This document shows, piece by piece, positions 8,762 through 64,000 of a stretch of DNA of 64,000 nt (positions within the stretch are counted from its first letter, which is position 1; every line of letters begins with the position of its first letter). The position numbers were made by a program, and so were the translations under genes. The notes under the pieces were generated by a model that was not told the origin of the DNA, searched no databases, and was given only the letters and a program-made list of their open reading frames with translations. The stretch comes from a virus. Location of the stretch: the IMG/VR virus record IMGVR_UViG_3300028029_000002, positions 1 through 64,000 of that record, one strand, 5' to 3'.

Positions 8762-9183
8762 GCAGGAGCCTCCAAGTCAACTAACTCTATAGCCACATCG
8801 AATTTATTTAACAATGGATCAAGGTTGTTTATATCAGATATACTTTTAAGCGCAACGCTCTTGATATACCCGGAATGATCCACTCCGTCGTCGACATGTA
8901 CATTGTCTATGAATTCTAACACTTTTCCAAGCAATGTACATAAGTAGTCGTATTCCGCTCGTGTAACCCGTAGCATGAATCGCCAGTCATGATGCACAAC
9001 CGGTAATCCATTCGAGTTTACAACACGGGCCACGTATGTATACCCGGTGTGAGAACGGCTCACGCCTATTTGGGCAGTTGGTATGTCACTGCGTTTAGTA
9101 GCTTTCCACCTTGCCGCTGGTGCATTGTCAATATCGCGTGGAACCAGTGGATCATCTAAGTGTATATGGCACTTAACAGTCAT
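8758..9183 (-). CDS. distal-tail-like small protein (141 aa)
   Basis: Immediately downstream of the tape measure, with overlapping stop/start codons. Confidence 0.5.
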   Translation of the reverse strand: MTVKCHIHLDDPLVPRDIDNAPAARWKATKRSDIPTAQIGVSRSHTGYTYVARVVNSNGLPVVHHDWRFMLRVTRAEYDYLCTLLGKVLEFIDNVHVDDGVDHSGYIKSVALKSISDINNLDPLLNKFDVAIELVDLEAPA

Positions 9184-18100: not shown

Positions 18101-19703
18101 CTGGCGGTGCGCCGGGTGATGTATCCGGTCTAGTCAGCCCGCTGTTTTTGCCCTTAATACGGGCCGCCAGTGCGCGTTCCATTGCCTCGAATACACCCAC
18201 GCTTCGCGGAGTCTCAGCCGCCAATGTCGGGTCTACTCCGCGTTCCGGCTTATCAACGATTGGAGTTGCCGCATATCCGCCGATGACCGGGCCGTGCGGC
18301 GTGAGTTTTATGGGGATATTGTAATCTTGTCCACCCTGCGCAACTACCATAACCGAGTAGCCCGGACTGTATTCTCTGAACCCCATAACGGTATACCCGC
18401 CCGGTATTTCGTCACCGGTTTTCACCGTTTCTCCGCCGATACGTAATGCGCTCTGTGGTTTTCCGGCAATATATGTGAGTTCCGGCGAAAATCCGGTGTG
18501 GCTAATAGAAGTCCCCTGCGCTTGTGTGGCGGTAATAAGTCGTAATGCCTGGCTGGGGTCTCCGGCAACATCGTGTTGTATGGACACTCGACTTATGCTG
18601 ACACCACTATTGATCGTGGACAACAGGGCGTTCAAAGTTTCAAATTCTTTCTCCTCGCCGCCAACTGTTGCGGAGAATTTATCGCCCACTCCCACTCTAA
18701 CTGTTATGGGCACGGGTTTAACCGCTTTGGTCTTTCTGCTGAGTTGTACCGGCTTCCGTATTTTGATTTCCGGGACGGAGAACGTGGGTTGTGAAGACTT
18801 TGCGGTGGGGGCGGCTAAGGCAGCCGCTTGTAGAGCTTTCACGTCATCAGACGTAAGCTCTCCCGCTATAGCATGCTCGACAATCGAGGCTATTGCGGAA
18901 CCTGGCAACACGGAAGCGGCTCGTGCCAACCTAGCCTTCGTTTCCCGTGCATATTCTCCCGTGAGTGTCCAGGTACTGCGCTCGGTGGGCTGGCTTTGTT
19001 TCTCGCGCACGGTTTTGCTGTTGACGATGACTCCGCGTACCTCTATGTCGTCCGGGCCGTACTTGTACCAGTCTTTATATTTTGTCCCGGCAAGTATTGA
19101 TTGCCGTTGACCTTCGGGCAAATCGAACCATCTCTGGCGGTACTCGTCAAGTTGGGCTTGGTAGTTTTTTGTGTACCGGGCCGCGTGTGGCCCTTTGAAG
19201 TCGTCTATGACAATATATCTTTTCCCATTCACCTTAAGCAACACTATGGCATCCGGCCTGAAATAGCCTTGTGAGTGTTTCTTTGCAATGCTCTCTGGGA
19301 TAATGTGTTCCTGCGCGAGTTTACGCAGTGAGCTTTCGCGCTCATACTCTGTGGAACCAGATACTTGTCTGTCAAGGATTTTCTTGGCTTCGCTGGGGTC
19401 GCCCACTATATCTTCTAACGCATATTGCATCAGGTTGTGGGCCGTGTAGTTTCCACCACCTGTCGGATTGGACAGGTCTTTATCTATTGCGTTGTGGATT
19501 ACACTACCGGCTTGGAGCCATTCGGGGTTTACTTCTTCTAATCCGAGGGCACGCCGCAACAGATTACTGGCCTCTAGCGCGGCTGCTCTGTTGTCACGTG
19601 TTACGTTGTTTAGAACATAGTTTACTACTTGAAATACAGCGTCGGTATCAGTCTCGGTGTAACCTAACGAACTGGGCCATATCCCGTTTATATCGAACTT
19701 CAT
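9183..19703 (-). CDS. giant tape-measure-like protein (3506 aa) with a long non-TMP-like N-terminal region
   Basis: Single uninterrupted ORF. It has a Gly-rich hydrophobic segment (GIGGAAIGTGLVAANLASMLPMIAGSAGPIGLAATTL) and a Q/R-rich coiled-coil C-terminus. It sits after the chaperone-like gene and before the tail tip genes. Confidence 0.75.
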   Translation of the reverse strand: MKFDINGIWPSSLGYTETDTDAVFQVVNYVLNNVTRDNRAAALEASNLLRRALGLEEVNPEWLQAGSVIHNAIDKDLSNPTGGGNYTAHNLMQYALEDIVGDPSEAKKILDRQVSGSTEYERESSLRKLAQEHIIPESIAKKHSQGYFRPDAIVLLKVNGKRYIVIDDFKGPHAARYTKNYQAQLDEYRQRWFDLPEGQRQSILAGTKYKDWYKYGPDDIEVRGVIVNSKTVREKQSQPTERSTWTLTGEYARETKARLARAASVLPGSAIASIVEHAIAGELTSDDVKALQAAALAAPTAKSSQPTFSVPEIKIRKPVQLSRKTKAVKPVPITVRVGVGDKFSATVGGEEKEFETLNALLSTINSGVSISRVSIQHDVAGDPSQALRLITATQAQGTSISHTGFSPELTYIAGKPQSALRIGGETVKTGDEIPGGYTVMGFREYSPGYSVMVVAQGGQDYNIPIKLTPHGPVIGGYAATPIVDKPERGVDPTLAAETPRSVGVFEAMERALAARIKGKNSGLTRPDTSPGAPPVRTWTDANSIQLRGVNIQDLKPGRLMYRPANDTNTEGGDKESRIVAFPVDEYLSRVPGMTKAASGRYFIGRPSYKAVKFAKDAWKALRSQGPLAVTAGRQDRITSAIGVTKGASSSSRPNRGNNYRLAVLNTGAISQGMGYIILPKGVKQVMAETQLNKRFDVPDGFTWDDKFLSGDTIRTADGRIRIGFRKEWDQKKGESVQVPVHLAVGNSYSEVGLNVDSKEFRASEGFKGEGASISLPLVARTSNFTSKHMGIKAYMRTLTYEMAEELFGESDAEALSEDGKRLTMVLGSDDIKSLPSFATAVADAIGDNTFNDFLTSDYSEEEMIEATRQLFERAQTGEGEISLTTGAQAASYALKMGDQDKVSFVTMDALFPVTAEFTHGNTQLNSEEAMLYKVSNPEMYEGIQRKARRAQLTNASIIRANKIMEGSPVKEDEHILTLPAQTVNEVMDEIREKKGPNFRSSDLFRKLLGKYEGLDTVAPIHLEGTDVYLPSLSAIAQMSTIDPATGEELERTSREMFGLLTSTTSKGEYQIDRVDKYRARLKELANTEAIHVGVQNKQLRNALYVGYQYHMNMPEGGVFIPPRDLIEMVPGLRGQLARAENVAEQQNILSDLYSQLDGEAVTFFRRPETDPLYSVLPMRMVNPFEVEGLSDIALELMNAPMTQQLHTMASDSIYEPASADVDFDTALLQFTRNVSLDKETGDLRKAHIGGKAMTARQVEKHSLARLLEMGALPQGVDTIKQAHRYVTLFRAGIRGATFGVDPSDDKAMLHLISDDERFAGALARMASENPAPGSQMSAIYSDMNDLIESEQGTPMERFLKSLKLVKRNGDGEYVNNDPDELFATTAQISQGSIDYVKAKRNMGPTYTFLRVLNGAFLNAVDEGRLKGKEMLEAYEDIAKASNLYQRSLDLKGLTKREEDAISRLYRTARTFFNPFEGKSVRAMGPQDNIISMQLGGFKSGFIRDIIGGMTSGDDAGHYVRSMIKAIKAPIAEGKINQRFPYSPEELAMSIGTEHLSDNPVVKTIKDLIERVVPRTVLDAIADRAMNETGGVWKDEVVNATPQYYNRNLPGEMLDARISTGEAKLLRNLEKLPADEVARIASASAAPSFDPGRRRNVLLNERAEERKNIPVDAAAGFKASNFTVPTPDETQAVTATPAPENIPQPEAQINAQQNDIGEQLGGIMAQIFEMARRYTLPVVDYNSVGPRFLKGLSAMASGQFDPGLARRTKSVVAGQFDAAVDLVSNVKPPSIHTVNASNTLANILAATGRNPYMDAGMTRKIAYSQFGEGGAMAQSYQWQIRRAQEMMAIGEPTSQQGKQDWFRMTERLETSSKAILATAETMREAGFEDLAKSIESFAEPMAKLLPSFQKTSEAILSGEYTAGAEAVKEIPEDISNMALSLASTLEERDKIRSKDITALKKYIGVIGQERFDAIQERYDKQELNAAITGPESKPTNYTPLTTTQKKQMSPLYLSIDDMQKALDAPPPPAPEQQKRAAALVAALRQRKKITSTDMAVLKEQGDAVSLADLEEIQALYKQQRLDAAITGKEKKQAPISQQDAARAQGLLSTLQSRDVLSRKDLSALKIVESALDPKAVAEIKARYEQQVIDAAQNRVDVSPERKEAANVMMQSLRERSDSLNYNEITAAKAGAKGMPELEKEVAKFEEQWRIRRIQSVGSDAKSSAAPAPKVSEERLAAAQETLDVLLKNADSLTLGDLQKVGPGFTGIPGMAEQIGALKENIRKRYLEAATKKFTAPDTEAVATEVETATAETTQPSGVIRGRISKTKTTSGGARGVQVEVNPETLAMATALSDKLLNGEVSKDDMTLARKFSNVLSPDVMSSLETRFAQQSAQRRIDGPQTQTDEQFVALLKKATPVMRGWVENLEKMSKSLENNKRKLTKEEVAEVQRGREVFRKYKEIAGQAGEMSDEERQLVERGDVASLGIGMFGDKPERGGIKGFFERLKNPRTGLGSDLFFTSRMFRQFLQPLIGGGEQYQQYQNQMNAYRMMGGAGIDRGSQNVVENLQQMKMSRMRTGGYIMAGANGMLGGDGLGSQTVSDVLGIGGAAIGTGLVAANLASMLPMIAGSAGPIGLAATTLTGLTLGGLRVAGEAKDTDKMKAEVAAGNASPANRLFVAREYAKQGNYTSAYNDAALPYWTDIKKDFESTGNVNGATRSYMFGSRGGKEFESLRVGISGGATGEMRDERLQIAGSLWGNVATTGMRRAVPGNEFQSRGAEIGTMLGNVLDTRLVGLSPEATYQMSLSWVQAMGEGKTTEAAQLDFLKQAFTGSAYENMSIKGMLPQAMSGFLQYAGAKQGMGQVVTKSIEDFSQENQSVTERAGLAQYYSTANALGSLGLTYNDSFVAQAGQLPLQSQRDSLVRSEAQMFNTLPLLTKEVQSLVTGMEVAVPGRVDPLYGMQTLPVDEEFVQKQNDAMRMLTQVQSGNPWAASKMKSESLWDALPDVLQSWFGGGESMPAIFQKQTTRGFQIGYENLPSSDTELGQAMRYGFKVDGEQYQGIESYIGQGGTFEAAMHNAFVGFAQDAIPIQVAHKGLDAIEKFGSGDGMMPAFGAVEGKGLQQLQIESAAEGYRDSMFKLSLQFEDLADNLKFVPEKLDIQDQLFNIGVQKQREQMQDSWSRFEIQWQWGMDDLLKNFNRSMTRIGWSESDLNFRQNTSQLDFAWAMEDIQENLKYATGRQRRALLRQQDRGTIKFALGQSQIDEQRSRLDIQRQWAEEDFNTAQDRHNKRMEWESTRFARQNAYFEQETALRMRLNAINRAMTMNQLNRQQRSLQNAQQHLRLTYAQQRAIQAIQMTVQNFQAGVSKITNEGARSVEIFGSLSASLRSAAAGARRLRSALGGGVSTGRIKYYANGGYTGEGGTAVLHPGEYVLNSNLTKTFEQRVGPLTNSNLNALANSGDPRVISVLQQILGAIVSQDVRSVNVSVNTNDARAGAVEGLSIAKELELS

Positions 19704-20799: not shown

Positions 20800-23091
20800 T
20801 TACGGAGTTTGTGGGACATCGTCGCCGTAGGGGGTGGAGCGGGAGTTGGTGATGGTGATAACGGAATAGTGAGATTCAATAACAAACGTGTCGCCGGTGG
20901 CAGGAGCGGTAATCCACGGACGTTGCGGGATGACAGTACCTTCGCTCGTGCCGTCACGATACCCGGCAATGAAACGAACTTGCCCGGCCCCGTTCCCGGA
21001 TGTGATGCGGATAAACTTCCCGATCACGTCGTCTTCGGATAAGGCGTCGAGGTCTGCGTGGGTCAACGCGCCGGTGACAATGTTAGCGTCTGCCGCCAAA
21101 GTCATCGGGCCGTAAATCGGGTTATTCGTACCACAGGGCTGAACGGGGCGACCGACGAACTCAAGTTCAACAATGTCGTTACCCTGCAACCTCGGAGCAC
21201 CCTGCAATTCCCAGACAGTCTCCGGGAAGTACCCCTCGATACCGAACACTTCATTCGTTCCGGTAATCTTTTGCGGAGACACACAACGGAAGTAGCTATC
21301 GGATTTGAACACATCAGGAGAGAACCGACGCATCACCTGAGTAATGCTTCCACCCGTTGCAATCAAGGAGAACAGTTCGTGAGAACGTACGCGATAGGTG
21401 TAGCGCAACTCCGCGCTGGCTCCTTGAACCGTGATGTCGTCCTGCTCATAAGCACCGACCAACATCTCTTGGGCTGCGTCCAATGCCTGATACGCATAAT
21501 TCACGGTCAACTGGCGAACCGGCAACTTCCGACCGGCAAAAGGTTCCTTGAATGTCTTGAAGACACTTTCGGGAATAGAGGTTTTTGGAATAGTGATGGG
21601 ACACTCAGCCTCAAGCCAATTCACGTCAACTTCTTCCATGAAAATAGCGTAAGCCATAGCAGATGTAGGAGCCAGAGCAAAAGAGCCGTCAACATGGGCC
21701 GTAGTAGTCCCGGCAACAATACCGGAGATTACATACATACCCACGGAATCGCCGTTAGCATCCCACACCTCGATCCAGTGACCCTTGTACAAATCATCGG
21801 TCGTGAAGGCCGCACTGTCCACAACGCTGGTGAGCGTGCCACCAGTCGGGTGCGTAGAATCCAAGATGATGTAGTAGTCGCCATTTTCGCACTCTTCAAA
21901 CATTTCGCCATCAACGCGCAATACGTAGTTACCATCAGAATCAACGACCTTCTGATTTACACGGCGCGTACCTTTGCCGAGGATACTAATCCAGTCGTTC
22001 ACGTTAACAGCAGCGTACACGTCAGGCTGTACGTAAATTTGGCGGATGTTCCCACCAAGAGCTTGCGCACCCAGCGCATACATCGCGCCGGACGACACGA
22101 CAACGGCAGGTGGTTCAAATGTGATTACGGTTGCGGTATTCGTAGTAACCGTTCGCCAGCCCACACCTTCAATATAGACACCGGCGCCGACGAGAGAATC
22201 AACGGCGTAAGAAGCCGCACTGTCAGTCAGGGTTGTCGCCGTCGTGTCTGCCGTGGTCGCGGCCCACATCGGAGCATCAACCAAGTAGTCAGTTCCGGTC
22301 GCAATCAGAGCACTGGCAGCGGGGCTGAACGTAATCTCAGTCGTGGTGTGGGAAACGATAGTTCTCCACCCCACGCCGTCAATATAAACGCGCATCCCCA
22401 CAAGCCCCACGAAGTTGGCGGTCGAATCAATCAACGTGTTAACTGTACCGTCAGAGTCCGTAGTGCTCATTGTGGTCGCAGAAGTGGGGGCCTTCGGGCC
22501 AATCAAACTAGAGCGATCAACAAACTTCATCGCTCCGTTAATCCCGAACACCCGTGCCCGCTGGTTAATATCCACCGTCATCAATCCAGCGGCAGGAATA
22601 TTCAGGACCGCCGAGATAATACGGGAATCCTCGTGAACCTCAAGTGCGTCCGAGGCCGGGCCGATACCGGGCAAGTACTTGAAGAAGGAAAGCCACGGCA
22701 AATTACCGGCCCGTGAACTTTCGTCCAGCATAAACGAGTGCTCGCCAATCCCCGTGCCTTCATACTCAGACAGGATCGCGCCGCTCAAAGCGTATAGAAT
22801 CCACCCGAAAGTGTCTTCCATACGTGGTTGCAAGGTATAAGACCCAGCGACGTTGTACCCCGCACGATACGCGCCCGTGGGGAACATCGTCCCGCCAATT
22901 TCAGCCTCAAGCATCCGCTGGTCAATTTGCGGGGACACATCAACAGTCGTGGCATTGAAAGTTAATATATTGCCACCAGTTGGGTAGTACGTAATAGCAT
23001 CGGGGGACGGAGAACCGTCCTTCGACAAGTACCCCAAACGGTTACTTTGTAACAAAAAACCCATCCTTCCTTTAGTCGAGATCAGAGCCAT
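20800..23091 (-). CDS. major tail (tube) protein candidate with four inserted ~55-aa repeats (763 aa)
   Basis: Lies after two connector-sized genes and before the chaperone and TMP. Internal repeats include DSTANFVGLVGMRVYIDGVGWRTIVSHTTTEITF and DSAASYAVDSLVGAGVYIEGVGWRTVTTNTATVITF. Confidence 0.45.
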   Translation of the reverse strand: MALISTKGRMGFLLQSNRLGYLSKDGSPSPDAITYYPTGGNILTFNATTVDVSPQIDQRMLEAEIGGTMFPTGAYRAGYNVAGSYTLQPRMEDTFGWILYALSGAILSEYEGTGIGEHSFMLDESSRAGNLPWLSFFKYLPGIGPASDALEVHEDSRIISAVLNIPAAGLMTVDINQRARVFGINGAMKFVDRSSLIGPKAPTSATTMSTTDSDGTVNTLIDSTANFVGLVGMRVYIDGVGWRTIVSHTTTEITFSPAASALIATGTDYLVDAPMWAATTADTTATTLTDSAASYAVDSLVGAGVYIEGVGWRTVTTNTATVITFEPPAVVVSSGAMYALGAQALGGNIRQIYVQPDVYAAVNVNDWISILGKGTRRVNQKVVDSDGNYVLRVDGEMFEECENGDYYIILDSTHPTGGTLTSVVDSAAFTTDDLYKGHWIEVWDANGDSVGMYVISGIVAGTTTAHVDGSFALAPTSAMAYAIFMEEVDVNWLEAECPITIPKTSIPESVFKTFKEPFAGRKLPVRQLTVNYAYQALDAAQEMLVGAYEQDDITVQGASAELRYTYRVRSHELFSLIATGGSITQVMRRFSPDVFKSDSYFRCVSPQKITGTNEVFGIEGYFPETVWELQGAPRLQGNDIVELEFVGRPVQPCGTNNPIYGPMTLAADANIVTGALTHADLDALSEDDVIGKFIRITSGNGAGQVRFIAGYRDGTSEGTVIPQRPWITAPATGDTFVIESHYSVITITNSRSTPYGDDVPQTP

Positions 23092-39528: not shown

Positions 39529-39817
39529 CCCACCTAGCAATAGGAAGGGCGTATATAGGACACTAGCCTGGGACGCCTGATGAGGGAAGTACCCAGGAAG
39601 CATGTCCGCACACCACGTATGTTCTGACGTGGCTAAACAATGTGCAGAACACCCCCACGTTCTATAGGGTAGCGTGGTTAATCTTCACCCTAGCGGATGT
39701 CCATCCAATCCATTGCAGAGATTACTCCGCTTGGCAATGTGTGCGTTAGGAGTTGCCGTGCTGATGCCTCACCGCAAGGGAGGAACAAGTAGGCACGGTA
39801 TGACCCAGGAGGTCGAA
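39529..39817 (+). ncRNA. conserved structured leader element, copy 2
   Basis: See copy 1. It precedes the RNAP-like gene directly and ends in GGAGGT-5 nt-ATG. Confidence 0.6.
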
Positions 39818-42097
39818 ATGTCCAAGATTTATAAAGCAGTAGAGTTGGTAGTTAAGAATACCTCGATCACGATTGAGGATAAGGGCAGCACTAATGCCGC
39901 CCGTGATGACCGCATGAAGCGGTACATCACATCCGAGGTAGAGAGAGAGTGTCTAGCCGCCCACATCGGGTGGTTGGACAGCAGCACTTTCGTCAGTATC
40001 CCCCACACGGGCGTCGATGGCAAAGCAATTGACGTTGACTCCTACCAGCAGTTATTGGTAGGGGCACAGGGTAGTGGCGTATTAGTCGCCACACAAAGTG
40101 GCGAAAAGGCGGGGAACTACATCCGCCTGACCGCCGAGGCGTGGGAGCGGTTCGCCGCGCCCCTGCGGGGGAAAGTCAGGGGCGCGAAAGCCTTGCAGGT
40201 GGCGGGGTTGTTATTCTCCGCCACGACGAAGGATCAATATTCCGTTGAGTCCGCAGTCGTCATCACCCCCGGCCATCCCCTTGACCGGGGGCAAGATGGT
40301 AATGGGATGGCCCCGAAATCCCTGACCCCCACCACCGTCCAGGTGCGGTTCGCCGCCCTGGACGCGGCTGGCGAAGTTGACGCCAGCCGTGTGGGTAAGG
40401 GGATTCTCAGCCCCACGTCCCCCGATGGGAGGGTGTATTTGCACCACTCCCAATTGAAAGGGGCATGGGACATTGCCCCCTGGGAAGAAGGACAAGAGGA
40501 AATCGTTGTCAGCGTCCTCGTTCTTCGGAATGAGGGCGTTTCCGCTGAGCGCATTATGCGCGACCCGGAGACCGGAAAGGTCTCACTCCGCGCAAAGCGG
40601 AGTTGGATGAGCAGTGAAGTCACCGCCCTCTTCTCACCGTCAGCCAATCTTCACCTGGCGGAAGGCGGGGAGGGGATTCATTCCCAGAAAGTCCGCCGTG
40701 AGGTCGAGAACCTCACGGGGATGTTCAGCGAGGAGGGGCGTGTTTCCCTTCTCAAACGCTGGGGCGGGCTAGAGTTGGACGAGGAGGGCCATTTGCTGCC
40801 CTCCAAGAACGCGGGCATTGAGGCTCTTCGTACCCCCCTGCCCTGGTGCAGGGAAGTAGAGGAATTGCTGGGGCGTTTCGCTGTACCAGAAGTGGTACAG
40901 ATAGCTCACGGGGCTGGCATCCCCGTGAAGGTATCGCTTCTCGTCCAAGACGAGAAGTACGGACGCAAGCCCATCTCCCTGAAAGCCGCCCTGAAGAGGG
41001 TGGCGGAAGGGAAGCGGGTTTGGGGACTCTATCGGGTTCCCGTAACGGGCACACAGGCGATCCAGTGGTTCACCCGCGCCCCTTATAAGAGGGGTATCGG
41101 GTTCGTGATCGCTCCGTCCGCCGCGAAAGGCATGGACGGGGATAGCGACGGAGACCCCGGATACCAAATTGACCCAAAGGACGCGCCCGCAGTGGCGCAG
41201 TCCCTGGATACGCGCTTGAGCGGGTCTGGCAAGCCCGCTAAACAGGCGAAGCCGGATTTTCCGCTCAATAGTATGTCCGTCTTGGAGTATTGGATGGACA
41301 TGCTTGTCCATCACCCCCTCGTGGGGCGTGCCACGACCCTGTCGTGGCGTCTCATGCGGGATGGTCGCCACGAGGACGCTGTGTTAGCGTCCACGGCGGC
41401 CAACGCCGCCCCGATGCTGGCGAAGCATCGGGTGGACATTGACGGCGAAGCCGTCTCCGACATCGTGTACCGTCTTTCGGAGGAGGAACGTGCCCGCGCT
41501 CCGAAGACCGGAGATGGATACTCCATCATTGCGCCATTGCAATGGCGCGATTGGAAGGCGGCGTCGAAGCCGCTCCGTTCCCTGCGCCAAATGGCGTGGG
41601 GCAACGGTTCCCCGGAGAGCGTTCTCGACGAGTTGTCCATCGTCGCCACCCGCGCTGTCGAAGCGTGGGCGGCGAAGCCCGTTGGGGAACTCACGTTCAG
41701 CCGCACCGCCCGGTTGGTCTTCGCCCGTCGAGGGCGGTTGTTGCCGGGATGGGCGGTGCGCTCCGCCGCTCGGATCCGGGCCGAGTGGGCGAACTTCTGG
41801 ATCGCCCACATCCGCCGCGAAGGAGATAAAGTCTCCTTCATCGGCAATGATTTTGATACGATCTACAACGCCGTCCGCGAGTGGGGCGCGGCGGCTGATG
41901 TAGAGAGTCTTGCGGCATTGATGTCGCACCGCCGCAAGAGCGGCGAATCAATGCGGCTCAAGTGGGCCGCAATCTTCGACACCCACCGAGGTGTCGAAGT
42001 GTTGGGCCTCCACCCAGCGGTGGAGGAGGCATTGGGCGCGGACTACAAACGCGCCAAGTTAGTGGACGCGCTGGTTGCGTCCCTTGAAGAGGAGTAA
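39818..42097 (+). CDS. YonO / RdRP-like single-subunit two-barrel RNA polymerase candidate (759 aa; start refined from 39674)
   Basis: Motif ...GLYRVPVTGTQAIQWF...GFVIAPSAAKGMDGDSDGD, with DSDGD encoded at 41141-41155. This resembles the R-x-P...aP....DxDGD catalytic loop of the DPBB RNAP/RdRP family. Size is similar to YonO. Confidence 0.55.
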   Translation: MSKIYKAVELVVKNTSITIEDKGSTNAARDDRMKRYITSEVERECLAAHIGWLDSSTFVSIPHTGVDGKAIDVDSYQQLLVGAQGSGVLVATQSGEKAGNYIRLTAEAWERFAAPLRGKVRGAKALQVAGLLFSATTKDQYSVESAVVITPGHPLDRGQDGNGMAPKSLTPTTVQVRFAALDAAGEVDASRVGKGILSPTSPDGRVYLHHSQLKGAWDIAPWEEGQEEIVVSVLVLRNEGVSAERIMRDPETGKVSLRAKRSWMSSEVTALFSPSANLHLAEGGEGIHSQKVRREVENLTGMFSEEGRVSLLKRWGGLELDEEGHLLPSKNAGIEALRTPLPWCREVEELLGRFAVPEVVQIAHGAGIPVKVSLLVQDEKYGRKPISLKAALKRVAEGKRVWGLYRVPVTGTQAIQWFTRAPYKRGIGFVIAPSAAKGMDGDSDGDPGYQIDPKDAPAVAQSLDTRLSGSGKPAKQAKPDFPLNSMSVLEYWMDMLVHHPLVGRATTLSWRLMRDGRHEDAVLASTAANAAPMLAKHRVDIDGEAVSDIVYRLSEEERARAPKTGDGYSIIAPLQWRDWKAASKPLRSLRQMAWGNGSPESVLDELSIVATRAVEAWAAKPVGELTFSRTARLVFARRGRLLPGWAVRSAARIRAEWANFWIAHIRREGDKVSFIGNDFDTIYNAVREWGAAADVESLAALMSHRRKSGESMRLKWAAIFDTHRGVEVLGLHPAVEEALGADYKRAKLVDALVASLEEE

Positions 42098-54406: not shown

Positions 54407-54485
54407 GACCGTTATTGCCACACACACCTTTATTGACAACACATATCGACTGGGACAATCTGCTCACAGAGGCAAATAAGCCATT

Positions 54486-54746
54486 ATGAACACGATAATC
54501 ATATCCAACGTGCTGAAACAACACATATCACCAGTACTCGTCATCCGGAATGTTCCGAATAAAGAAAGCGTGCTGACAATTAAACGCCTCTATCTCCAAG
54601 CTGGATTATTAGACCCACAAAACGACGCTAGCAACATAATGATACAAACTGCTTCCGAGGCAGAAAGTAACATAATAGGACTGGCTCGAAAAGCTCCAAC
54701 AATCGATTGGAGCGATCTACTCACAAAGGCAAACAAACCACTATGA
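54486..54746 (+). CDS. hypothetical protein (86 aa) flanked by ~45-bp direct repeats
   Basis: ORF. Its last 15 codons are repeated, degenerate, immediately upstream of its own start. Confidence 0.55.
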   Translation: MNTIIISNVLKQHISPVLVIRNVPNKESVLTIKRLYLQAGLLDPQNDASNIMIQTASEAESNIIGLARKAPTIDWSDLLTKANKPL

Positions 54747-55161: not shown

Positions 55162-55397
55162 TGTATATCCGAACATACGACAAAGGGCTTATGGACATAA
55201 CTAATTGTTACCTCTATATTTTTCGGTTCCACGGAGATAAGTGCGCCGTCCTAGTAAGGAATCTCACCAACGCCAATGAGGATAGCGAAGACCCCGCCGT
55301 ATATTATGGTACAGAGAAGCAGTGTATAGCATATCTCGATATCGTATCTGAGTCATTGCTAACGTTCGATAAACTATTAATGCAAAGGAGAAGTTAA
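55161..55397 (+). CDS. hypothetical protein (78 aa; start refined), paralog of 55397..55642
   Basis: DITNCYLYIF...AVLVRNLTNANEDSEDP versus EVTNCRIYIN...VVVIENLANPNENIDPP. Confidence 0.55.
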   Translation: MYIRTYDKGLMDITNCYLYIFRFHGDKCAVLVRNLTNANEDSEDPAVYYGTEKQCIAYLDIVSESLLTFDKLLMQRRS

Positions 55398-56797: not shown

Positions 56798-56870
56798 GCG
56801 GGTATAGCCTAATGGATAAGGCGACTGTCTTCTAAACAGTAGAGTGCAGGTTCGAGTCCTGCTACCCGTA
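56798..56870 (+). tRNA. tRNA-Arg (anticodon UCU)
   Basis: Cloverleaf read by eye: acceptor GCGGGTA/TACCCGT (one G-U), D stem GCCT/AGGC, anticodon stem ACTGT/ACAGT with loop CTTCTAA, T stem GCAGG/CCTGC with loop TTCGAGT, discriminator A. Confidence 0.85.
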
Positions 56871-56894
56871 CATCCTAGTAAAGGAGAAAATATT

Positions 56895-57718: not shown

Positions 57719-58141
57719 ATGTCACAAATCAAACTGAGCGACAATGTATACAACATCACCAACATTTATAACGAAAACCTTCACGTCGTCATCGAAACAG
57801 AATCCGGCACTATCTTCTGGGCATTTAACGACGACAACACATACAAAGAAATATACGCACATTTCAAAGATATGCTACATCAGTCGCCGAGTGAATTCAT
57901 GGCAACATTCGGGGATAAAACCCCAGAAATGGCTTGGCGACTAGGTATTGCTCACGAACAGGTGCGCCGCACTAATGACTACTCCGGGATCACAGAATTA
58001 GATAGCCCTCTTTACTTCTTCTCATCCGATCTCGACGATTACGAATTCGAGGGATACAGAGAAGAGGAAACAGACGAGTGGGGTGAAGCTCCATTCCCAT
58101 TCGAGATCACCGAAACGTCAGAAATCTACGCGCGGAATTAG
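57719..58141 (+). CDS. acidic hypothetical protein (140 aa; start refined)
   Basis: ATG lies 1 nt after the preceding stop. Its stop codon TAG is the first triplet of palindrome copy 6. Confidence 0.55.
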   Translation: MSQIKLSDNVYNITNIYNENLHVVIETESGTIFWAFNDDNTYKEIYAHFKDMLHQSPSEFMATFGDKTPEMAWRLGIAHEQVRRTNDYSGITELDSPLYFFSSDLDDYEFEGYREEETDEWGEAPFPFEITETSEIYARN

Positions 58142-58156
58142 TTCGCATGCGAACTA
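58139..58156. repeat. palindrome copy 6 (TAGTTCGCATGCGAACTA, perfect)
   Basis: Read directly. Confidence 0.9.
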
Positions 58157-58160
58157 ATAC

Positions 58161-58219
58161 AAAAAACCAAGAAGGAGAACACGAGCAAGAAGTTTTGACC
58201 GCGTTCCTTCTTGGTTTTC
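58161..58219. terminator. possible bidirectional terminator hairpin (long loop)
   Basis: AAAAAACCAAGAAGGA ... TCCTTCTTGGTTTT: a 12-bp stem with A-tract and T-tract flanks and a 28-nt loop. Confidence 0.4.
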
Positions 58220-58274
58220 TCTCGGCCACAATCGTAGCCGGGATTATATATCTAATCATACCATAAGGAGAAAT

Positions 58275-58628
58275 ATGGAATTCACATGGTTGCTTAGCGA
58301 CGGAACGGAAACCCAAGAAAGATATGGATATTGCGCGTTCGGTATTCTGTTAAACAAACCCGAACTTATAGCCCCGGCATTTGAAGATGGAACCATTCTC
58401 ATTAGGATTCCGCAAAAGGGGCATGTCCATATAATAAAGGGCAAAGAAGCTCCGACAGTAGCTCAACGCGATGCGCTAGAAAAATTCATCGGCGAAAACA
58501 CTATCGAATTAAAAATAACCAGATACGACACCCCGGAACAATATATATTCGATAACACAAAAGCGGGACTACTCTATCTGCTTGACCCAATCGCATACTA
58601 CGTAGCCGTACAATACAATGAAATCTAA
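58275..58628 (+). CDS. hypothetical protein (117 aa)
   Basis: RBS AAGGAG. Confidence 0.65.
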   Translation: MEFTWLLSDGTETQERYGYCAFGILLNKPELIAPAFEDGTILIRIPQKGHVHIIKGKEAPTVAQRDALEKFIGENTIELKITRYDTPEQYIFDNTKAGLLYLLDPIAYYVAVQYNEI

Positions 58629-58842
58629 AATCCTATCGAGAACAATAGATACAAAGGCCAAGGTCGAAGCCCGTTTAATAGAAACCGAAAAAACCTATGC
58701 TGTCGGCGTATTCGATTTAGACGCGCAGGAGTATTACCCGCCCCTGCAAATATATCCGAAAAGCATACCGCTCGCCCTGGAAAAAGCAACTGAGCAGTAT
58801 GCACATTGCAAGGAGATATATGAACATATCAAAACTAATTAA
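58618..58842 (+). CDS. hypothetical protein (74 aa)
   Basis: ORF overlapping the preceding gene end. Confidence 0.5.
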   Translation: MKSKILSRTIDTKAKVEARLIETEKTYAVGVFDLDAQEYYPPLQIYPKSIPLALEKATEQYAHCKEIYEHIKTN

Positions 58843-58945
58843 ACTAGGACAAGCTGCATCCAATACATTCCCACTCGTGACATATCTAGCATTTGCCGTG
58901 TTACTAGACGACAACATGGTTTCTGATTTGCTGAGGTTACTATAA
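58820..58945 (+). CDS. small hypothetical protein (41 aa; below ORF-track cutoff)
   Basis: RBS AAGGAG-5 nt-ATG; TAATG overlap with the next gene. Confidence 0.4.
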   Translation: MNISKLIKLGQAASNTFPLVTYLAFAVLLDDNMVSDLLRLL

Positions 58946-59298
58946 TGAATCACTACGGGATCGACCTCGATGTATTCGCTGACACTTGGTGGGATGCCAT
59001 GCTCTGCGTCCAAGACGGCAGAGACCGGCACAACATCATGATTGAGGGTAACTCATTGGAAGAAGCCGCACAAACGTTGTCCATGCGATTAACGCACTAC
59101 CTGAAATCGCTAATGTACATCGCCGACGAGGATGGCAACCTTGCAAAGATGCAAAAATACACCGTGCTCTATACAGGAACCAGAGACGGATTACGCATTA
59201 ACGCAATGAACGAAAACAATGCGGCGTTCATTGCCAATGAGAAGCGTCCGGGGAAACCCTTTAGAATCACCAGGATTATCGAAATGGACATATCGTAA
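58945..59298 (+). CDS. hypothetical protein (117 aa), paralog of 55645..55869
   Basis: Shared N-terminal block (see 55645..55869). Confidence 0.6.
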   Translation: MNHYGIDLDVFADTWWDAMLCVQDGRDRHNIMIEGNSLEEAAQTLSMRLTHYLKSLMYIADEDGNLAKMQKYTVLYTGTRDGLRINAMNENNAAFIANEKRPGKPFRITRIIEMDIS

Positions 59299-59342
59299 AA
59301 CTGCTGTATACTATCAATATCACAGTACAACATGGAGGTATA

Positions 59343-59498
59343 ATGGAAAAAGCAAACATTCTATACGAAGTAGCACTCGAAGCAATTCAGGAATTATTCG
59401 CGTTAACGTCTATAACTATAGACGAGACCAAAGATTATCTTAACGATCTCATCGGCGAGATCGAAATAATGTTGGAAAGCATGGAAAGAGACGAATGA
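59343..59498 (+). CDS. small hypothetical protein (51 aa; below ORF-track cutoff)
   Basis: RBS GGAGG-5 nt-ATG; ATGA overlap with the next gene. Confidence 0.45.
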   Translation: MEKANILYEVALEAIQELFALTSITIDETKDYLNDLIGEIEIMLESMERDE

Positions 59499-60130
59499 TG
59501 TTTAAGTTACTGGGAACTGCCGGGCTGTACTTTGCCACTAAGGCAATGCGGCTGTCACGCCACAGTAGGGGGGATAGTTCCACCCTTCTCAGAGAGGGCG
59601 ATATTCTCGGCCCGGAAGACAGAAAGCTACTAGAAAACCTGATCCTTGCCGGGGACTCCCACGCGAAGGCTCTGCGCATCGCAAAGATTTTCTTCGAGGT
59701 AACGGGAACACTCTCGTGGTGGCATCATTTCGACACCTACCGCTATGACGTATTCGCTCCATCATTTGACTCCGAATTGGGATTTGAGGCCGACGCTGCA
59801 TCAGAGTCAACGATGTACACGCTCAAGAAGACCATAGAAAATGGCAACCTAGACGAGATTACCTCTCTATTCAGCGACAAGGTTTTCCCGTCAACCGTTA
59901 AAAATTTCGTCAGGCGTGTAAAGCGTGACAATCTCTCTATCGCAGAAATCAGAGCAAATCTACCCTGGGGCTTTCTGCAAACGCGGATCGGCGCAATGTC
60001 GTATACAGCAGCGCGGAGAATTTATCTTGACCGACACACGCATGCATTGCAAGAATGGCGTGTGTTTTGCCAGGACATGATTAAGCAAGTGCCATACAGC
60101 CATTTACTCAAGCTGACGAAGGAGAAATAG
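59495..60130 (+). CDS. divergent ThyX-like (flavin-dependent thymidylate synthase fold) protein (211 aa)
   Basis: Blocks LILAGDSHAKALRIAKIFFEVTGTLSWWHHFDTYRY and LPWGFLQTRIGAMSYTAARRIYLDR...QEWR follow the ThyX layout. The canonical RHRxxS motif is replaced by HHFDTY. Confidence 0.35.
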   Translation: MMFKLLGTAGLYFATKAMRLSRHSRGDSSTLLREGDILGPEDRKLLENLILAGDSHAKALRIAKIFFEVTGTLSWWHHFDTYRYDVFAPSFDSELGFEADAASESTMYTLKKTIENGNLDEITSLFSDKVFPSTVKNFVRRVKRDNLSIAEIRANLPWGFLQTRIGAMSYTAARRIYLDRHTHALQEWRVFCQDMIKQVPYSHLLKLTKEK

Positions 60131-60877
60131 ATGAACAAACTGATAGCGTTCGACATCGAAACGGCGCACGAAGCAGGATATAAAAATTGGAACGAGTCGC
60201 CGGGCATTACATGTATTAGCGCATCACTTTTCTCTGCTGGTCAACACACTGTGCTTACCGCGCATAGCAATTATCAGCCCGTGATGACACAGAAAGACAT
60301 CCATCACTTCGTCGACAGTCTACATGACAGGTACAGGGATGGATATGATGTGGTAGCAATCAACATGACTGGATTCGACTCCCGTGTTCTGTTCTTAGAA
60401 TCAGACAGAGAACATCGAAGAAAAATTCAGGAGTTTACACTGTTCGGCTACGATCCATACTGGACTGTGTTTTGTCAACGCGGGTATGGCCCAGGTCTGC
60501 AAGCCATGGCGGACGGAATGGGCGTAGAAGGAAAACTCGACGGAATGAACGGGCTTGAAGCTATCACTGCATGGCAAGAGAATCGTGAGCGACAACAGCT
60601 TGTACTGCACTATGTGGAACAAGACGCAAGAGCTACATTAGACGTATTCAGAGCAATACGAAAATCTGGCGGGAGCATCTACTGGACGAGCAAACGAGGA
60701 AACCAAATGGGCTGCCACGCTGGTAGAAACGTGATTGATTCACTGGGTTATCCAAAACCCAACACGTCATGGATGACGAACCCGCGCACGCGAGAAAGCA
60801 CAATTGGATGGATGTTGGAGGAATCCAACGAATTCTCGGAATTACTTACGCAAGAACTGGAGAAAACAAATGGCTAA
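60131..60877 (+). CDS. DEDD-family 3'-5' exonuclease-like protein (248 aa)
   Basis: Exo I motif IAFDIET; a later HYVEQDARATLDVF resembles Exo III. RBS GAAGGAG. Confidence 0.55.
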   Translation: MNKLIAFDIETAHEAGYKNWNESPGITCISASLFSAGQHTVLTAHSNYQPVMTQKDIHHFVDSLHDRYRDGYDVVAINMTGFDSRVLFLESDREHRRKIQEFTLFGYDPYWTVFCQRGYGPGLQAMADGMGVEGKLDGMNGLEAITAWQENRERQQLVLHYVEQDARATLDVFRAIRKSGGSIYWTSKRGNQMGCHAGRNVIDSLGYPKPNTSWMTNPRTRESTIGWMLEESNEFSELLTQELEKTNG

Positions 60878-61034
60878 AATCACAGATGAATACGAAGAAC
60901 TCACCTTATACGAAAAACAACGTATTGACAAAATCATGAAATTCTACGAGTGCAATTTACGAGCCGCGTTATACATTAACGCTCTCGAAAAATACATCGG
61001 ACTCGGAAAAGATGAAGATATTCCGCTGGAATGA
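60870..61034 (+). CDS. small hypothetical protein (54 aa; start refined)
   Basis: GGAG-8 nt-ATG. Confidence 0.45.
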   Translation: MAKITDEYEELTLYEKQRIDKIMKFYECNLRAALYINALEKYIGLGKDEDIPLE

Positions 61035-61621
61035 TTAAACGGAATCAGCTACCAGATATATGCAACAATGTCGAATCCGCCATCAATACACTTGGCTGTA
61101 AGGGCCGTATTGATAGCGGAACACTCTCTGTAGACGAGAACGAGTTAGTATTGCATTACATCCCAGCCCCACAGATACGCTTCTCAACAGTGCAATCTGC
61201 CTGTGGGAAGCTGGGGCTTCAAGCTGTTGACAACAACGGTATCATAGAAATAAGGGAAGGATACATGAAAACAATTATCACCAACGCTTTCTCGCTAAAC
61301 ATGCTCGACCGAAAGCGGGGCCAAACAAAATTCGTGTTCACGCCAATCTCTCTGCGCGAAGCGGTTATTATTGCTAGGCGCACAAACAATTTAACGGTTG
61401 GGATTGGACACGAGAATACAGCCGCTATCGTTGCGGAACTGCTTAATCGTAAAGCTGATACTAAAGCCTGGCAAGCGATTGCGAAGACGCGACCAAATGT
61501 CAGCGCAAATGACAACCAGTTACTCGTGGCTCAATACACCGGGCCGCGATTACAAGAAGGAGCCAAACAACTACCAGAAGGAGCCGTAATTGAATTCTGG
61601 CACATCGTGGAGGAAAAATAA
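61031..61621 (+). CDS. acrIII-1: AcrIII-1 / DUF1874-like viral ring nuclease with a 78-aa N-terminal extension (or internal start at 61265)
   Basis: The C-terminal 118 aa (MKTIITNAFSLNML...GIGHENTAAIVAELL...LLVAQYTGPRLQEGA...IEFWHI) match the blocks I recall from SIRV1 gp29: NAFSINML, SIGHDSTIQLINSL, LYVVQISQRLEEG, QFFEI. Confidence 0.65.
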   Translation: MIKRNQLPDICNNVESAINTLGCKGRIDSGTLSVDENELVLHYIPAPQIRFSTVQSACGKLGLQAVDNNGIIEIREGYMKTIITNAFSLNMLDRKRGQTKFVFTPISLREAVIIARRTNNLTVGIGHENTAAIVAELLNRKADTKAWQAIAKTRPNVSANDNQLLVAQYTGPRLQEGAKQLPEGAVIEFWHIVEEK

Positions 61622-62112
61622 TGGAAGACACACAAGCCCTATCCGCTAACGACGTTATGCGACTCAATGATATTTACACCATGAAAATGCAAAGTCTCAG
61701 CAATGTGTTCAACGCTCTCGTTCTAAGATGGCCCGGTGATACAGGAGTAAGTTACCTCATCGACAATGACGCGCCCGTAATATCGCTTGCGCAACTATCG
61801 AGAATTGCATACAATACATACGACGCTGACTTGTACGAACAGTACCCAGTCATCAAAGTTTTTCACCGTGATGGCAATACTCTGCGCCCCGGCCCGTACC
61901 CGCCAATTCCGTATCTTAAGGTTGAACGCATCGAAGAAGATAATTCGCGTTCGTTTTATTATGTCAAGCTCAAAGATATGGATTCCTACGATCACATCAC
62001 ACTGGCGAACTTTATGGATTATGCTCTGACTCGCCCTCCGGCCCCGAAAATCATGGAACCCGGAGGCGTCATTGTAAAAACGCTAAAATACTATTCATCG
62101 ACAAGTACATAA
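61621..62112 (+). CDS. hypothetical protein (163 aa)
   Basis: RBS GGAGG; TAATG overlap with the preceding gene. Confidence 0.65.
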   Translation: MEDTQALSANDVMRLNDIYTMKMQSLSNVFNALVLRWPGDTGVSYLIDNDAPVISLAQLSRIAYNTYDADLYEQYPVIKVFHRDGNTLRPGPYPPIPYLKVERIEEDNSRSFYYVKLKDMDSYDHITLANFMDYALTRPPAPKIMEPGGVIVKTLKYYSSTST

Positions 62113-62220
62113 CGGGCAGTTATCAGGCGACAAAAACGCTTGATAAATGAGCTGATACAAATTAACCAGCAGGCGTTTTTATTCGCTTACATAACATTGT
62201 TATACGATTTGGAGGCAATT

Positions 62221-62430
62221 ATGAAACTTAAAGAAGGTGGCGCACTTAGTAATTTAATTAGACACGACGGAAGCCCAAAACAGCGGCTTGAATCAATAAG
62301 GGTAAGCCCAGGTGATGGACATTTAGAACTCTGGTTAAATGATGATATGTTAAGTTATTTAAGCCTGACGGAAGCAATTGAATTAAGAAATGAACTTAAT
62401 CAAGGAATTAAAGAAGCCACTGGAGTATAA
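62221..62430 (+). CDS. hypothetical protein (69 aa; start refined) in a low-GC insert
   Basis: RBS GGAGG-6 nt-ATG; flanked by hairpins. Confidence 0.5.
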   Translation: MKLKEGGALSNLIRHDGSPKQRLESIRVSPGDGHLELWLNDDMLSYLSLTEAIELRNELNQGIKEATGV

Positions 62431-62520
62431 CATGTGGTACACTTCCGTTCACCACATTAACAAGCGAATAGAAGCCAGCAGAGTTTGTGTTCTACCGGCT
62501 TTTATATTCAGGAATATAAT

Positions 62521-62712
62521 ATGACAATACAAAGATTTCAAGAACTCGTCGAGAAAAATTCCCCAACGCTTTCAGTAAACACCCTGATGAATTCTGCATT
62601 CATAGCAAATGAGAGTCCACTGCTCGGACTCGATTTTGTTATGGTAATAACATCAGTATTGGCAAAACGCATGAATATAGATGAATTCACGGCGTTTTGT
62701 AGTAAACTATAA
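62521..62712 (+). CDS. hypothetical protein (63 aa; start refined)
   Basis: ATG preceded by AGGAA. Confidence 0.45.
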   Translation: MTIQRFQELVEKNSPTLSVNTLMNSAFIANESPLLGLDFVMVITSVLAKRMNIDEFTAFCSKL

Positions 62713-62725
62713 ATAGGAGGTATGA

Positions 62726-63115
62726 ATGGACACGTTTGAACTGTTAACGAACGCACACAACCAATATGCAGAAGCATTAACCCGCCATCAGGACGCGCTA
62801 GAGTTGGTACATGAGGCACAGCACGATCTCGATCTTGTAGTACACAAAACGGTGATTGAGCAATTTGATGTACTGACAAGCGCGAGAAATGAACGCGAAT
62901 ACAAGTTACGTTATGCTAAATACATTGACGGAAACGAAGCTGTAACCGAAGCTCGCGCCGCGTTTGTTGATGCACAAATCTACGCTACTGAAACGGAAGC
63001 GAATAAGAAGGTGGCGTACGACTGGACACTGATGGCGAGAACATTCGTCAATTCCCTATCGCAACAGGGAACTATCACCACAGGAGACTTAAATGGAAAT
63101 CCACGCGCCGAATGA
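62726..63115 (+). CDS. hypothetical helical protein (129 aa)
   Basis: RBS AGGAGG. Confidence 0.65.
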   Translation: MDTFELLTNAHNQYAEALTRHQDALELVHEAQHDLDLVVHKTVIEQFDVLTSARNEREYKLRYAKYIDGNEAVTEARAAFVDAQIYATETEANKKVAYDWTLMARTFVNSLSQQGTITTGDLNGNPRAE

Positions 63116-64000
63116 CAACAAAGTCGATTTTCTATATGTCGGGGTTGTAGGAGACCCCGGCTCTGGAAAAACCCAACTATGCGGAACTATTCCGCACGCC
63201 TTCTTCATTGATGCTGACGACGGGGCCAGCAACATCAACCGTCCCTCCGTCACATTCCCATATAATGCACGCGGGTATGAAGAAATCAAGCAACTCGTGC
63301 AAGCTATGGTCAGGCTCCAACCCGATGAAAACAACATGCTGACCGTCCCCGGAACAAGCTACAAGTTCCGAACCCTCGTGATCGACACACTTAACCTCGT
63401 GCAACAACGACTCGCCATCTCTATCCCGCCAGAGCGAAACACAATGCGCTGGTATGGAAAACTGCTGAAAACGCTAGTAGATGACATTATCACGCCGACC
63501 AAGCAAATCAATGCAAACGTTGTACTGATTATGCACAGCGCGAAGGAAGAGACTGAAAGCCTCAAGCTGGAAAGTCGCGGCGAGGTAAAAGAACGAGAGC
63601 TAGACGGAACGCTTTCGCTTCCCTCTATGAAAATCTCCCTAGCGGGTTCCATCAGCAAGTTATTGCCGGGTCTGTTCGACGCAACCGCATACATCGCTCT
63701 TACCCAAACTGGCAAGCGGCTCATCATCACGCAACCCCGCCAGATCGGAACGCGGTACATCAGCGGAGACGTAGCAAAAGACCGCTACTATCTGTTTGGC
63801 GGACGTGACATCGAATGGACGTTCGTGAACGGGAAACCTAACACCGATGTATTTGCCAAGATTTTCGAGAAAACTCGCGGCGGCACACGTGATGCGTCCA
63901 AGCAAGCGGTCGTTGACGAACAAACCGCAATCGTCCTAGAAGCCGCGAAAGAAGCAGGCTTCTATAATAAGGGACAGATTGCAGGTGATAACACTATGGA
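63093..64000 (+). CDS. Sak4-like / AAA_24-type RecA-fold ATPase, 3' end cut by window edge (absent from ORF track)
   Basis: GGAG-6 nt-ATG at 63093; frame open to base 64000. Walker A GVVGDPGSGKT, then FFIDADDG and a hydrophobic strand ending in D (FRTLVIDTLN). Confidence 0.6.
   Translation, partial: MEIHAPNDNKVDFLYVGVVGDPGSGKTQLCGTIPHAFFIDADDGASNINRPSVTFPYNARGYEEIKQLVQAMVRLQPDENNMLTVPGTSYKFRTLVIDTLNLVQQRLAISIPPERNTMRWYGKLLKTLVDDIITPTKQINANVVLIMHSAKEETESLKLESRGEVKERELDGTLSLPSMKISLAGSISKLLPGLFDATAYIALTQTGKRLIITQPRQIGTRYISGDVAKDRYYLFGGRDIEWTFVNGKPNTDVFAKIFEKTRGGTRDASKQAVVDEQTAIVLEAAKEAGFYNKGQIAGDNTM

Follow-up and report, generated by a model that had tools for sequence, protein, structure and literature searches.

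A phage DUF1874 ring-nuclease domain in one frame with an orphan N-terminal region and preceded by a strong internal Shine-Dalgarno-like sequence

The window analysed here comprises positions 1 to 64,000 (64,000 nucleotides) of the IMG/VR virus record IMGVR_UViG_3300028029_000002. It is the genome of a tailed phage, and very few of its genes can be recognised. The window encodes a 196-aa protein in which residues 79-196 are a member of the DUF1874/AcrIII-1/Crn2 family by profile, fold and active-site residues. We consider it likely that this protein is a phage DUF1874 ring nuclease to which a small gene has been joined, that it has dual translation starts, and that it would serve in the removal of cyclic tetra-adenylate (cA4). 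AcrIII-1 is the best-known viral enzyme that erases cyclic-oligoadenylate immune signals. Among 28,114 curated phage genomes, only 36 were found to have it (10.1101/2024.09.24.614671). The protein described here adds a divergent bacterial-phage member to this family, with no more than 49% identity to anything in a collection of 5.8 billion proteins. The coordinates of the features are given in Table 1.

Table 1. Features of the ring-nuclease ORF and its surroundings (positions in the window unless another contig is named)
Feature	Position	Strand	Basis or remark
Upstream 54-aa gene	60870..61034	+	TGA (61032-61034) overlaps ATG 61031 as ATGA
Full ORF, 196 aa	61031..61621	+	ATG start, TAA stop 61619-61621; orphan N-terminal region followed by DUF1874 domain
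N-terminal 78 residues, orphan region, predicted small alpha-beta-beta-alpha-beta-beta domain	61031..61264	+	Codon usage; AF2
Shine-Dalgarno-like AAGGGAAGGA before internal ATG 61265	61252..61261	+	Anti-SD duplex -7.5 kcal/mol
TAC = Tyr78, proposed stop-codon-loss site	61262..61264	+	Directly before the ATG; one substitution from TAA/TAG
DUF1874 / AcrIII-1-type ring-nuclease domain, residues 79-196	61265..61618	+	PF08960 homologues, profile, Foldseek
His127 (CAC), equivalent of catalytic SIRV1 gp29 H47	61409..61411	+	Invariant alignment column, 82 sequences
8-residue insert relative to family consensus, residues 133-140	61427-61450		Between the catalytic His and R154
Downstream 163-aa gene	61621..62112	+	Begins within the TAA stop of the ORF (TAATG); same tightly packed operon
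SIRV1 N8 -> N85			Alignment
SIRV1 S11 -> S88			Alignment
SIRV1 N13 -> N90			Alignment
SIRV1 H47 -> H127			Alignment
SIRV1 S49 -> N129, changed			Alignment; bacterial/phage relatives mostly have Asp or Asn
SIRV1 T50 -> T130			Alignment
SIRV1 R66 -> R154			Alignment
SIRV1 Q81 -> Q168			Alignment
SIRV1 R85 -> R173			Alignment
DUF1874 gene with shared 76-aa N-extension, contig L013 (IMG/VR large phage contig, 204 kb)	L013:2788-3315		
DUF1874 gene with shared 76-aa N-extension, contig L064 (IMG/VR large phage contig)	L064:2788-3318		

To place the C-terminal domain in a family, we searched the 5.8 billion proteins and found 81 relatives with 31-49% identity, all annotated PF08960 and all covering approximately residues 79-196 only. 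When the query and these relatives were aligned and each of the 82 sequences was scanned individually, 78 of them matched PF08960 at E<=1e-3. The single-sequence Pfam scan of the query itself gave PF08960 with an E value of 0.006; its score was 17.1 bits, where the gathering score is 26, and the precomputed annotation of the 196-aa protein in the collection lists PF08960 as 'weak'. This sub-threshold score is probably explained by the 8-residue insert. Family membership rests on the profile and on structure. The profile, which was built from the alignment of the query and its 81 relatives, matched SIRV1 gp29 (2X4I, E 2.8e-18), the complex of SIRV1 gp29 H47A with cA4 (6SCF, E 1e-16), STIV B116 (2J85, E 7e-16), AFV3-109 (2J6B, E 8.4e-15) and Marinitoga Csx1-Crn2 (8Y7F, E 6e-5). 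Among the PHROGs, the best match was phrog_5063 (E 3e-8, residues 80-177), a family without functional annotation, which is informative only about the phage distribution. An AlphaFold2 (AF2) model of the full protein showed a mean pLDDT of 83, with 86-97 in the blocks of the C-terminal domain. In a Foldseek comparison with the PDB, ranks 1-17 were all AcrIII-1 or Crn2 structures (6scf, 2j6b, 2j85, 2x4i and 8y7f at the top), the probability was 1.00 for the top 16, and the target-normalised TM scores for the stand-alone viral structures were 0.60-0.72. A DARPin match in the single-sequence PDB search was rejected as a coincidental short helical repeat. An earlier sequence-only reading of this DNA had assigned residues 79-196 to DUF1874, had described a block-by-block likeness to SIRV1 gp29 and had proposed a Pfam search as a check. 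Our alignments confirmed the likeness, and the assignment stands by profile and structure, although the single-sequence Pfam search did not reach the gathering score.

In SIRV1 gp29, H47 is the absolutely conserved general acid, and cA4 is contacted by N8, S11, N13, S49, T50, R66, Q81 and R85 (10.1101/778746). The conserved His that the sequence-only reading had expected was found in the alignment as H127, and the equivalents of the contact residues are listed in Table 1. The 8-residue insert is common only to the query and its closest relative (P0002), and AF2 predicts an extra helix in the insert region, at residues 141-151, adjoining the cA4-contact residue R154. The replacement of S49 by Asn and the insert, which may affect the binding site, count against our main explanation. 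If it works like its homologue SIRV1 gp29, the C-terminal domain would dimerise and bind cA4 at the dimer interface, and two opposite phosphodiesters of cA4 would then be cut with His127 acting as the general acid, with A2>P and A2-P as the expected products of rapid cleavage. The loss of cA4 would remove the second messenger of type III CRISPR, and CARF-family effector nucleases would consequently not be switched on.

The ORF as a whole consists of 196 uninterrupted codons. The closest in-frame stop before it, at 61013, is followed by ATG 61031 as the earliest start codon; the other in-frame starts before or at the beginning of the DUF1874 part are TTG 61151, GTG 61190 and ATG 61265. As the sequence-only reading had noted, the frame runs without a stop from ATG 61031 to the internal ATG, and the first ATG does overlap the stop of the previous gene. 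An identical 196-aa protein was called independently on an 80.6-kb ENA metagenome contig (k141_1023144), the 11.8 kb that this contig and the window have in common are identical, and the protein is common to three sources. The ENA contig stops at about position 62848 of the window, which continues for about 1.15 kb more (62850-64000); a RecA/AAA-like ORF in this last region appears to run off the end of the window. Because the window runs past the sole contig returned for the 196-aa protein, it represents another assembly of the same phage.

We then evaluated whether the 78 codons before the internal ATG resemble a gene. Their codon-usage log-odds were +0.11 per codon in the ORF frame versus -0.54 and -0.63 in the other frames. 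In-frame windows of the other genes of the phage had a mean of 0.18 ± 0.10, so that the 78-codon stretch falls at the 11th percentile, and this position on the low side for genes counts against our main explanation. Only 6.4% of the wrong-frame 78-codon windows were stop-free and only 0.7% of the wrong-frame windows reached the codon-usage score of the N-terminal part; thus, 78 open codons of this kind are unlikely to have arisen by chance. Intergenic gaps were unusable as a negative control for coding potential, as several of them score as coding in one frame. For the gaps between gene calls at 54407-54742 and 55162-55396 (+), one forward frame was gene-like (+0.12 and +0.07), and these gaps may contain uncalled small genes. 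The alternative that 61031-61264 is a non-coding leader or RNA was also considered and rejected, since the region had no Rfam match and the gene contains no promoter or terminator on the + strand; no sigma-70-like promoter was found on this strand anywhere in 60461-62316. Judged from its frame and codon composition, the coding-like stretch of residues 1-78 is probably translated.

The N-terminal part is also predicted to fold. In the full-length AF2 model, residues 1-78 have a pLDDT of 58-80 and form a helix (4-20), two strands (32-35 and 38-43), a second helix (51-60) and two further strands (63-68 and 71-76). A stand-alone AF2 model from the single sequence was compact, with the same topology; its overall pLDDT was 67, rising to about 80 in the C-terminal half and the last hairpin. 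The linker between the two parts is very short, with three residues separating strand 71-76 from the DUF1874 strand 80-84. No relative of residues 1-78 was found in a word-indexed search of the 5.8 billion proteins, and HMMER against 1.84 billion cluster representatives returned only the protein itself and two repeat proteins. These matches, to TPR and HYR/PKD repeat proteins at E values of about 1e-5, were rejected as repeat artefacts because their scores are sums of matches over many repeats. Pfam and PHROGs gave only noise for this region (Tau95_N, E 0.14; phrog_37420, E 0.04), and Foldseek, run with the stand-alone model on the PDB and BFVD, yielded nothing at E<0.05; weak resemblances to RRF, to the GspL/PulL C-domain and to small phage proteins were not significant. 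In addition, when 150 DUF1874 loci of IMG/VR and GTDB genomes were searched by tblastn, no similar separate gene was found upstream. The sequence-only reading had proposed a novel N-terminal part of 78 residues, and the continuous frame, the coding-like codon usage and the lack of any relative in these searches bear it out.

The two possible starts differ markedly in their predicted pairing with the anti-Shine-Dalgarno (anti-SD) sequence. A pairing as strong as that of the internal ATG 61265 occurs at only 4.4% of the 412 internal in-frame ATGs in the window, and the median of 81 first-ATG starts is -6.3 kcal/mol. The claim that the internal start has an SD of its own was therefore sound. At ATG 61031 the pairing is -1.0 kcal/mol, and about 15% of putative starts are this weak or weaker; in most genes of the block, a clear site of the AGGAG type precedes the ATG by 4-8 nt. 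The alternative starts TTG 61151 and GTG 61190 lack an SD. The first Met of the domain, Met79, coincides with the normal N-terminus of the family and aligns exactly with the Met of the stand-alone relatives. Given the strong SD and the alignment of Met79 with the first Met of the relatives, the short, canonical 118-aa enzyme is very probably translatable from 61265.

These observations could also mean that there are functionally two genes, that only the 118-aa protein matters, and that the upstream 78 codons are decaying or irrelevant, or are linked to the enzyme only through a variant or a consensus error at 61264. The difference in SD strength (-7.5 vs -1.0 kcal/mol), the location of Met79 exactly at the N-terminus usual for the family, and the absence of relatives of the N-terminal part are all in keeping with this scenario, as is the junction, which resembles a normal stop-start arrangement with TAC replacing the stop and in which the last 25 nt before the internal ATG contain TAG, TAA and TGA in the +1 frame. 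We nevertheless find it doubtful, though possible. The 196-aa protein occurs in three sources with an identical 11.8 kb ENA overlap, the usage of the 78 codons is gene-like in the ORF frame only, and AF2 predicts a compact alpha/beta domain. Moreover, the weak SD at ATG 61031 has a counterpart in ATGA coupling at other genes here: the ATGA overlap is also found at three other junctions, and one of them (54047) is equally poor in SD. It is plausible that the overlap at 61031 would allow termination-reinitiation coupling and thereby production of the long form. Under our preferred explanation of a joined gene with dual starts, 61265 would probably still give rise to the canonical 118-aa enzyme, since neither the original ribosome-binding site nor its ATG has been lost. 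Translation coupled to the upstream gene would start at 61031 and yield the 196-aa fusion, so that short and long forms may both be possible.

The junction itself suggests how the fusion may have arisen. Its layout is AAGGGAAGGA-TAC-ATG, and a native junction two genes upstream, between the genes for a 211-aa and a 248-aa protein, has the same layout, GAAGGAGAAA-TAG-ATG, at 60128-60133. From this likeness we infer that the 78 N-terminal residues most likely represent a small, unrelated phage gene that was joined by stop loss, in which a change of TAA or TAG to TAC would have let it read into the ring-nuclease gene. Against this origin, no supporting relative was found in the collections searched: in the search for an unfused ancestor, blastn of 6 kb (58000-64000) against GenBank phages revealed no phage relative, and neither tblastn of the protein nor a search with the neighbouring proteins in IMG/VR revealed a close one. 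The junction would look no different if 61264 were a base-call error or a population variant, and the agreement of the sources argues mildly against this. If the stop-loss explanation is correct, the junction might be a snapshot of gene fusion by loss of a stop codon, with the old ribosome-binding site kept.

An opposite view of the same frame is that the protein is a bifunctional anti-defence fusion, in which the long form is the main product and the N-terminal domain provides a second activity or targets the enzyme to a type III complex, to a CARF effector or to another defence. The frame is continuous and coding-like, the N-terminal domain is predicted to fold, and the linker from strand 71-76 to strand 80-84 is very short, all of which would suit such a protein. 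Extensions also occur elsewhere in the family. Of the 81 relatives, 22 are at least 130 aa long, most of them with C-terminal tails; C-terminal extensions are present in P0004, P0017, P0027, P0047 and P0052, and further extended relatives are L057, L048 and P0051. An examination of 78 IMG/VR loci showed that many seemingly open N-terminal extensions are read-through, rich in Arg and Pro, in genomes of high GC content, and that some look real. In particular, two genes on the contigs L013 and L064 have an N-terminal extension in common that is 60.5% identical, versus 88% for the core; over its 76 codons, the first, second and third positions are identical in 54, 59 and 40 cases. Since third positions vary most, this extension appears to be under purifying selection as protein. 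These two contigs, which belong to a jumbo-phage lineage, represent a second, unrelated N-terminal architecture in the family. In addition, Csx1-Crn2 provides an example of functional coupling by fusion. The sequence-only reading had considered a fusion unusual for this family; in view of Csx1-Crn2 (PMC7293037) and of the 76-aa extension in L013 and L064, it is less so than was claimed.

We regard the bifunctional fusion as unlikely all the same. No second example of the N-terminal domain was found in our searches, and for this reason there is no evidence of selection on the domain or on the fusion. The retained SD and ATG suggest that the fusion is recent or accidental, and neither fold nor family (Pfam, PHROGs, Foldseek) gave a hint of a function for the N-terminal domain. 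The extensions of the other DUF1874 relatives contain no Pfam domain, and none of them resembles residues 1-78. A more elaborate scenario, which we put forward as a quite improbable speculation, is a two-part weapon in which the N-terminal domain would dock the enzyme onto a host immune component or inhibit that component, the two starts would give a tunable mixture of long and short forms and hence mixed dimers, and variable appendages, which about a quarter of the metagenomic relatives have, would be a general, undescribed mode by which phages diversify this enzyme.

The genomic context is that of a phage. The recognisable genes in the window encode a portal protein, the large subunit of ribonucleotide reductase (RNR), an RNA ligase and an RNase H-fold exonuclease, together with a tRNA-Arg (anticodon TCT; 56798-56871, +), which lies inside the early/middle block of small genes. 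The sole match of the portal protein, with 26% identity, is from a Streptomyces phage, and no relative of 58000-64000 at the DNA level was found among GenBank phages by blastn. A giant ORF of 3505 aa (9183-19703, -) had no Pfam match, nor had several ORFs of 760-1260 aa (4988-8761, -; 20800-23091, -; 39674-42097, +). The 1256-, 807- and 762-aa ORFs were also without a PHROG match, and the phage is largely 'dark matter'. The ring-nuclease gene belongs to a long co-oriented block of densely packed small genes of no known function. For its downstream neighbour of 163 aa, searches of Pfam and PHROGs found no family. Two genes upstream, the 248-aa protein (60131-60877, +) has a DnaQ-like RNase H fold (PF13482, E 5e-5) and, among the PHROGs, aligns with a DNA polymerase family in its exonuclease portion; the gene before it (59495-60130, +) encodes a phrog_6721 protein of no assigned function (E 4e-21).

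This context bears on the role of the enzyme. The portal, RNR, RNA ligase and tRNA genes and the packed, co-oriented small genes show that the ring nuclease is virus-encoded, as an anti-CRISPR would be, and IMG/VR contigs contain 107 relatives. A scan of the neighbours revealed no cas gene, and the reading of the gene as a Crn2, that is, a host regulator, thus does not apply. The nearest cellular DUF1874 genes come from Chloroflexota, CPR, Clostridia, Proteobacteria and Myxococcota; they are scattered and share at most 44% identity with the query, and allow no inference about the host. The sequence-only reading had taken the gene to imply a type III CRISPR system or another cOA-signalling defence in the host; it is reasonable to suppose that cA4 signalling may be in use there. 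Protection of the phage by the enzyme would require sufficiently early expression. For SIRV2 gp37, which is closely homologous to SIRV1 gp29, a preprint describes the absence of an anti-CRISPR effect in native infection, attributed to late expression, and a second role (10.1101/2023.01.10.523387). On account of that preprint, 'anti-CRISPR' is to be read for the present protein as its likely activity class and not as a phenotype.

The same homologue raises the question of whether the DUF1874 protein acts here in some way other than as an anti-CRISPR, by binding or inhibiting a host protein or by degrading cA4 from a non-CRISPR source. Such a role would agree with the lack of a native anti-CRISPR effect and the interaction with a host lysine methyltransferase that are reported for SIRV2 gp37 (10.1101/2023.01.10.523387) and with the position of the gene among DNA-metabolism genes and genes without known function, which do not form a recognisable anti-defence island. 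We think it improbable, for three reasons. First, the conservation of the catalytic and cA4-contacting residues argues for selection on cA4 cleavage. Second, the methyltransferase partner is limited to Crenarchaeota. Third, cA4 cleavage is the only activity that has been tested in bacterial and phage members of the family (10.1101/778746). A putative anti-CRISPR benefit from cA4 cleavage is part of the explanation that we prefer.

There is nothing out of the ordinary in the identification of the core domain. The fusion amounts to a modest curiosity and would be of interest only if the long form is functional. If both forms are indeed made, the gene would provide a simple natural system in which to test the effects of an N-terminal appendage on this enzyme family.

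Compared with the characterised AcrIII-1 proteins, namely SIRV1 gp29, STIV B116 and AFV3-109, the present protein belongs to the same family by profile and predicted fold, is likewise encoded by a virus, has a core of about 115 aa, and conserves the catalytic His and the cA4 contacts N/S/N/T/R/Q/R. It differs from the archaeal-virus proteins in that it is only about 21-27% identical to them, and it falls in the bacterial/phage branch, with the motifs NAFSLNML, GHxxTA and VAQYTGPRLxEGAxxLPEGA. Further differences from characterised AcrIII-1 are the Asn in place of SIRV1 S49, the 8-residue insert (as in P0002) and the 78-residue N-terminal extension. The extended genes of L013 and L064 lack both an internal Met and an SD where the domain begins; the present gene has kept the two. 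In Csx1-Crn2 of Marinitoga, the DUF1874 domain is C-terminal and the fused ring nuclease is still active (PMC7293037). The present protein is similar to Csx1-Crn2 (8Y6Z/8Y7F/8Y7G) in that the partner is fused at the N-terminal side of the DUF1874 domain. However, the partner in Csx1-Crn2 is a 430-aa CARF-HEPN effector, encoded in a host type III-B locus and acting as a self-limiting regulator, while here it is a 78-aa orphan region in a phage. Like the present protein, other metagenomic phage DUF1874 proteins consist of the core and an appended sequence of no assigned function.
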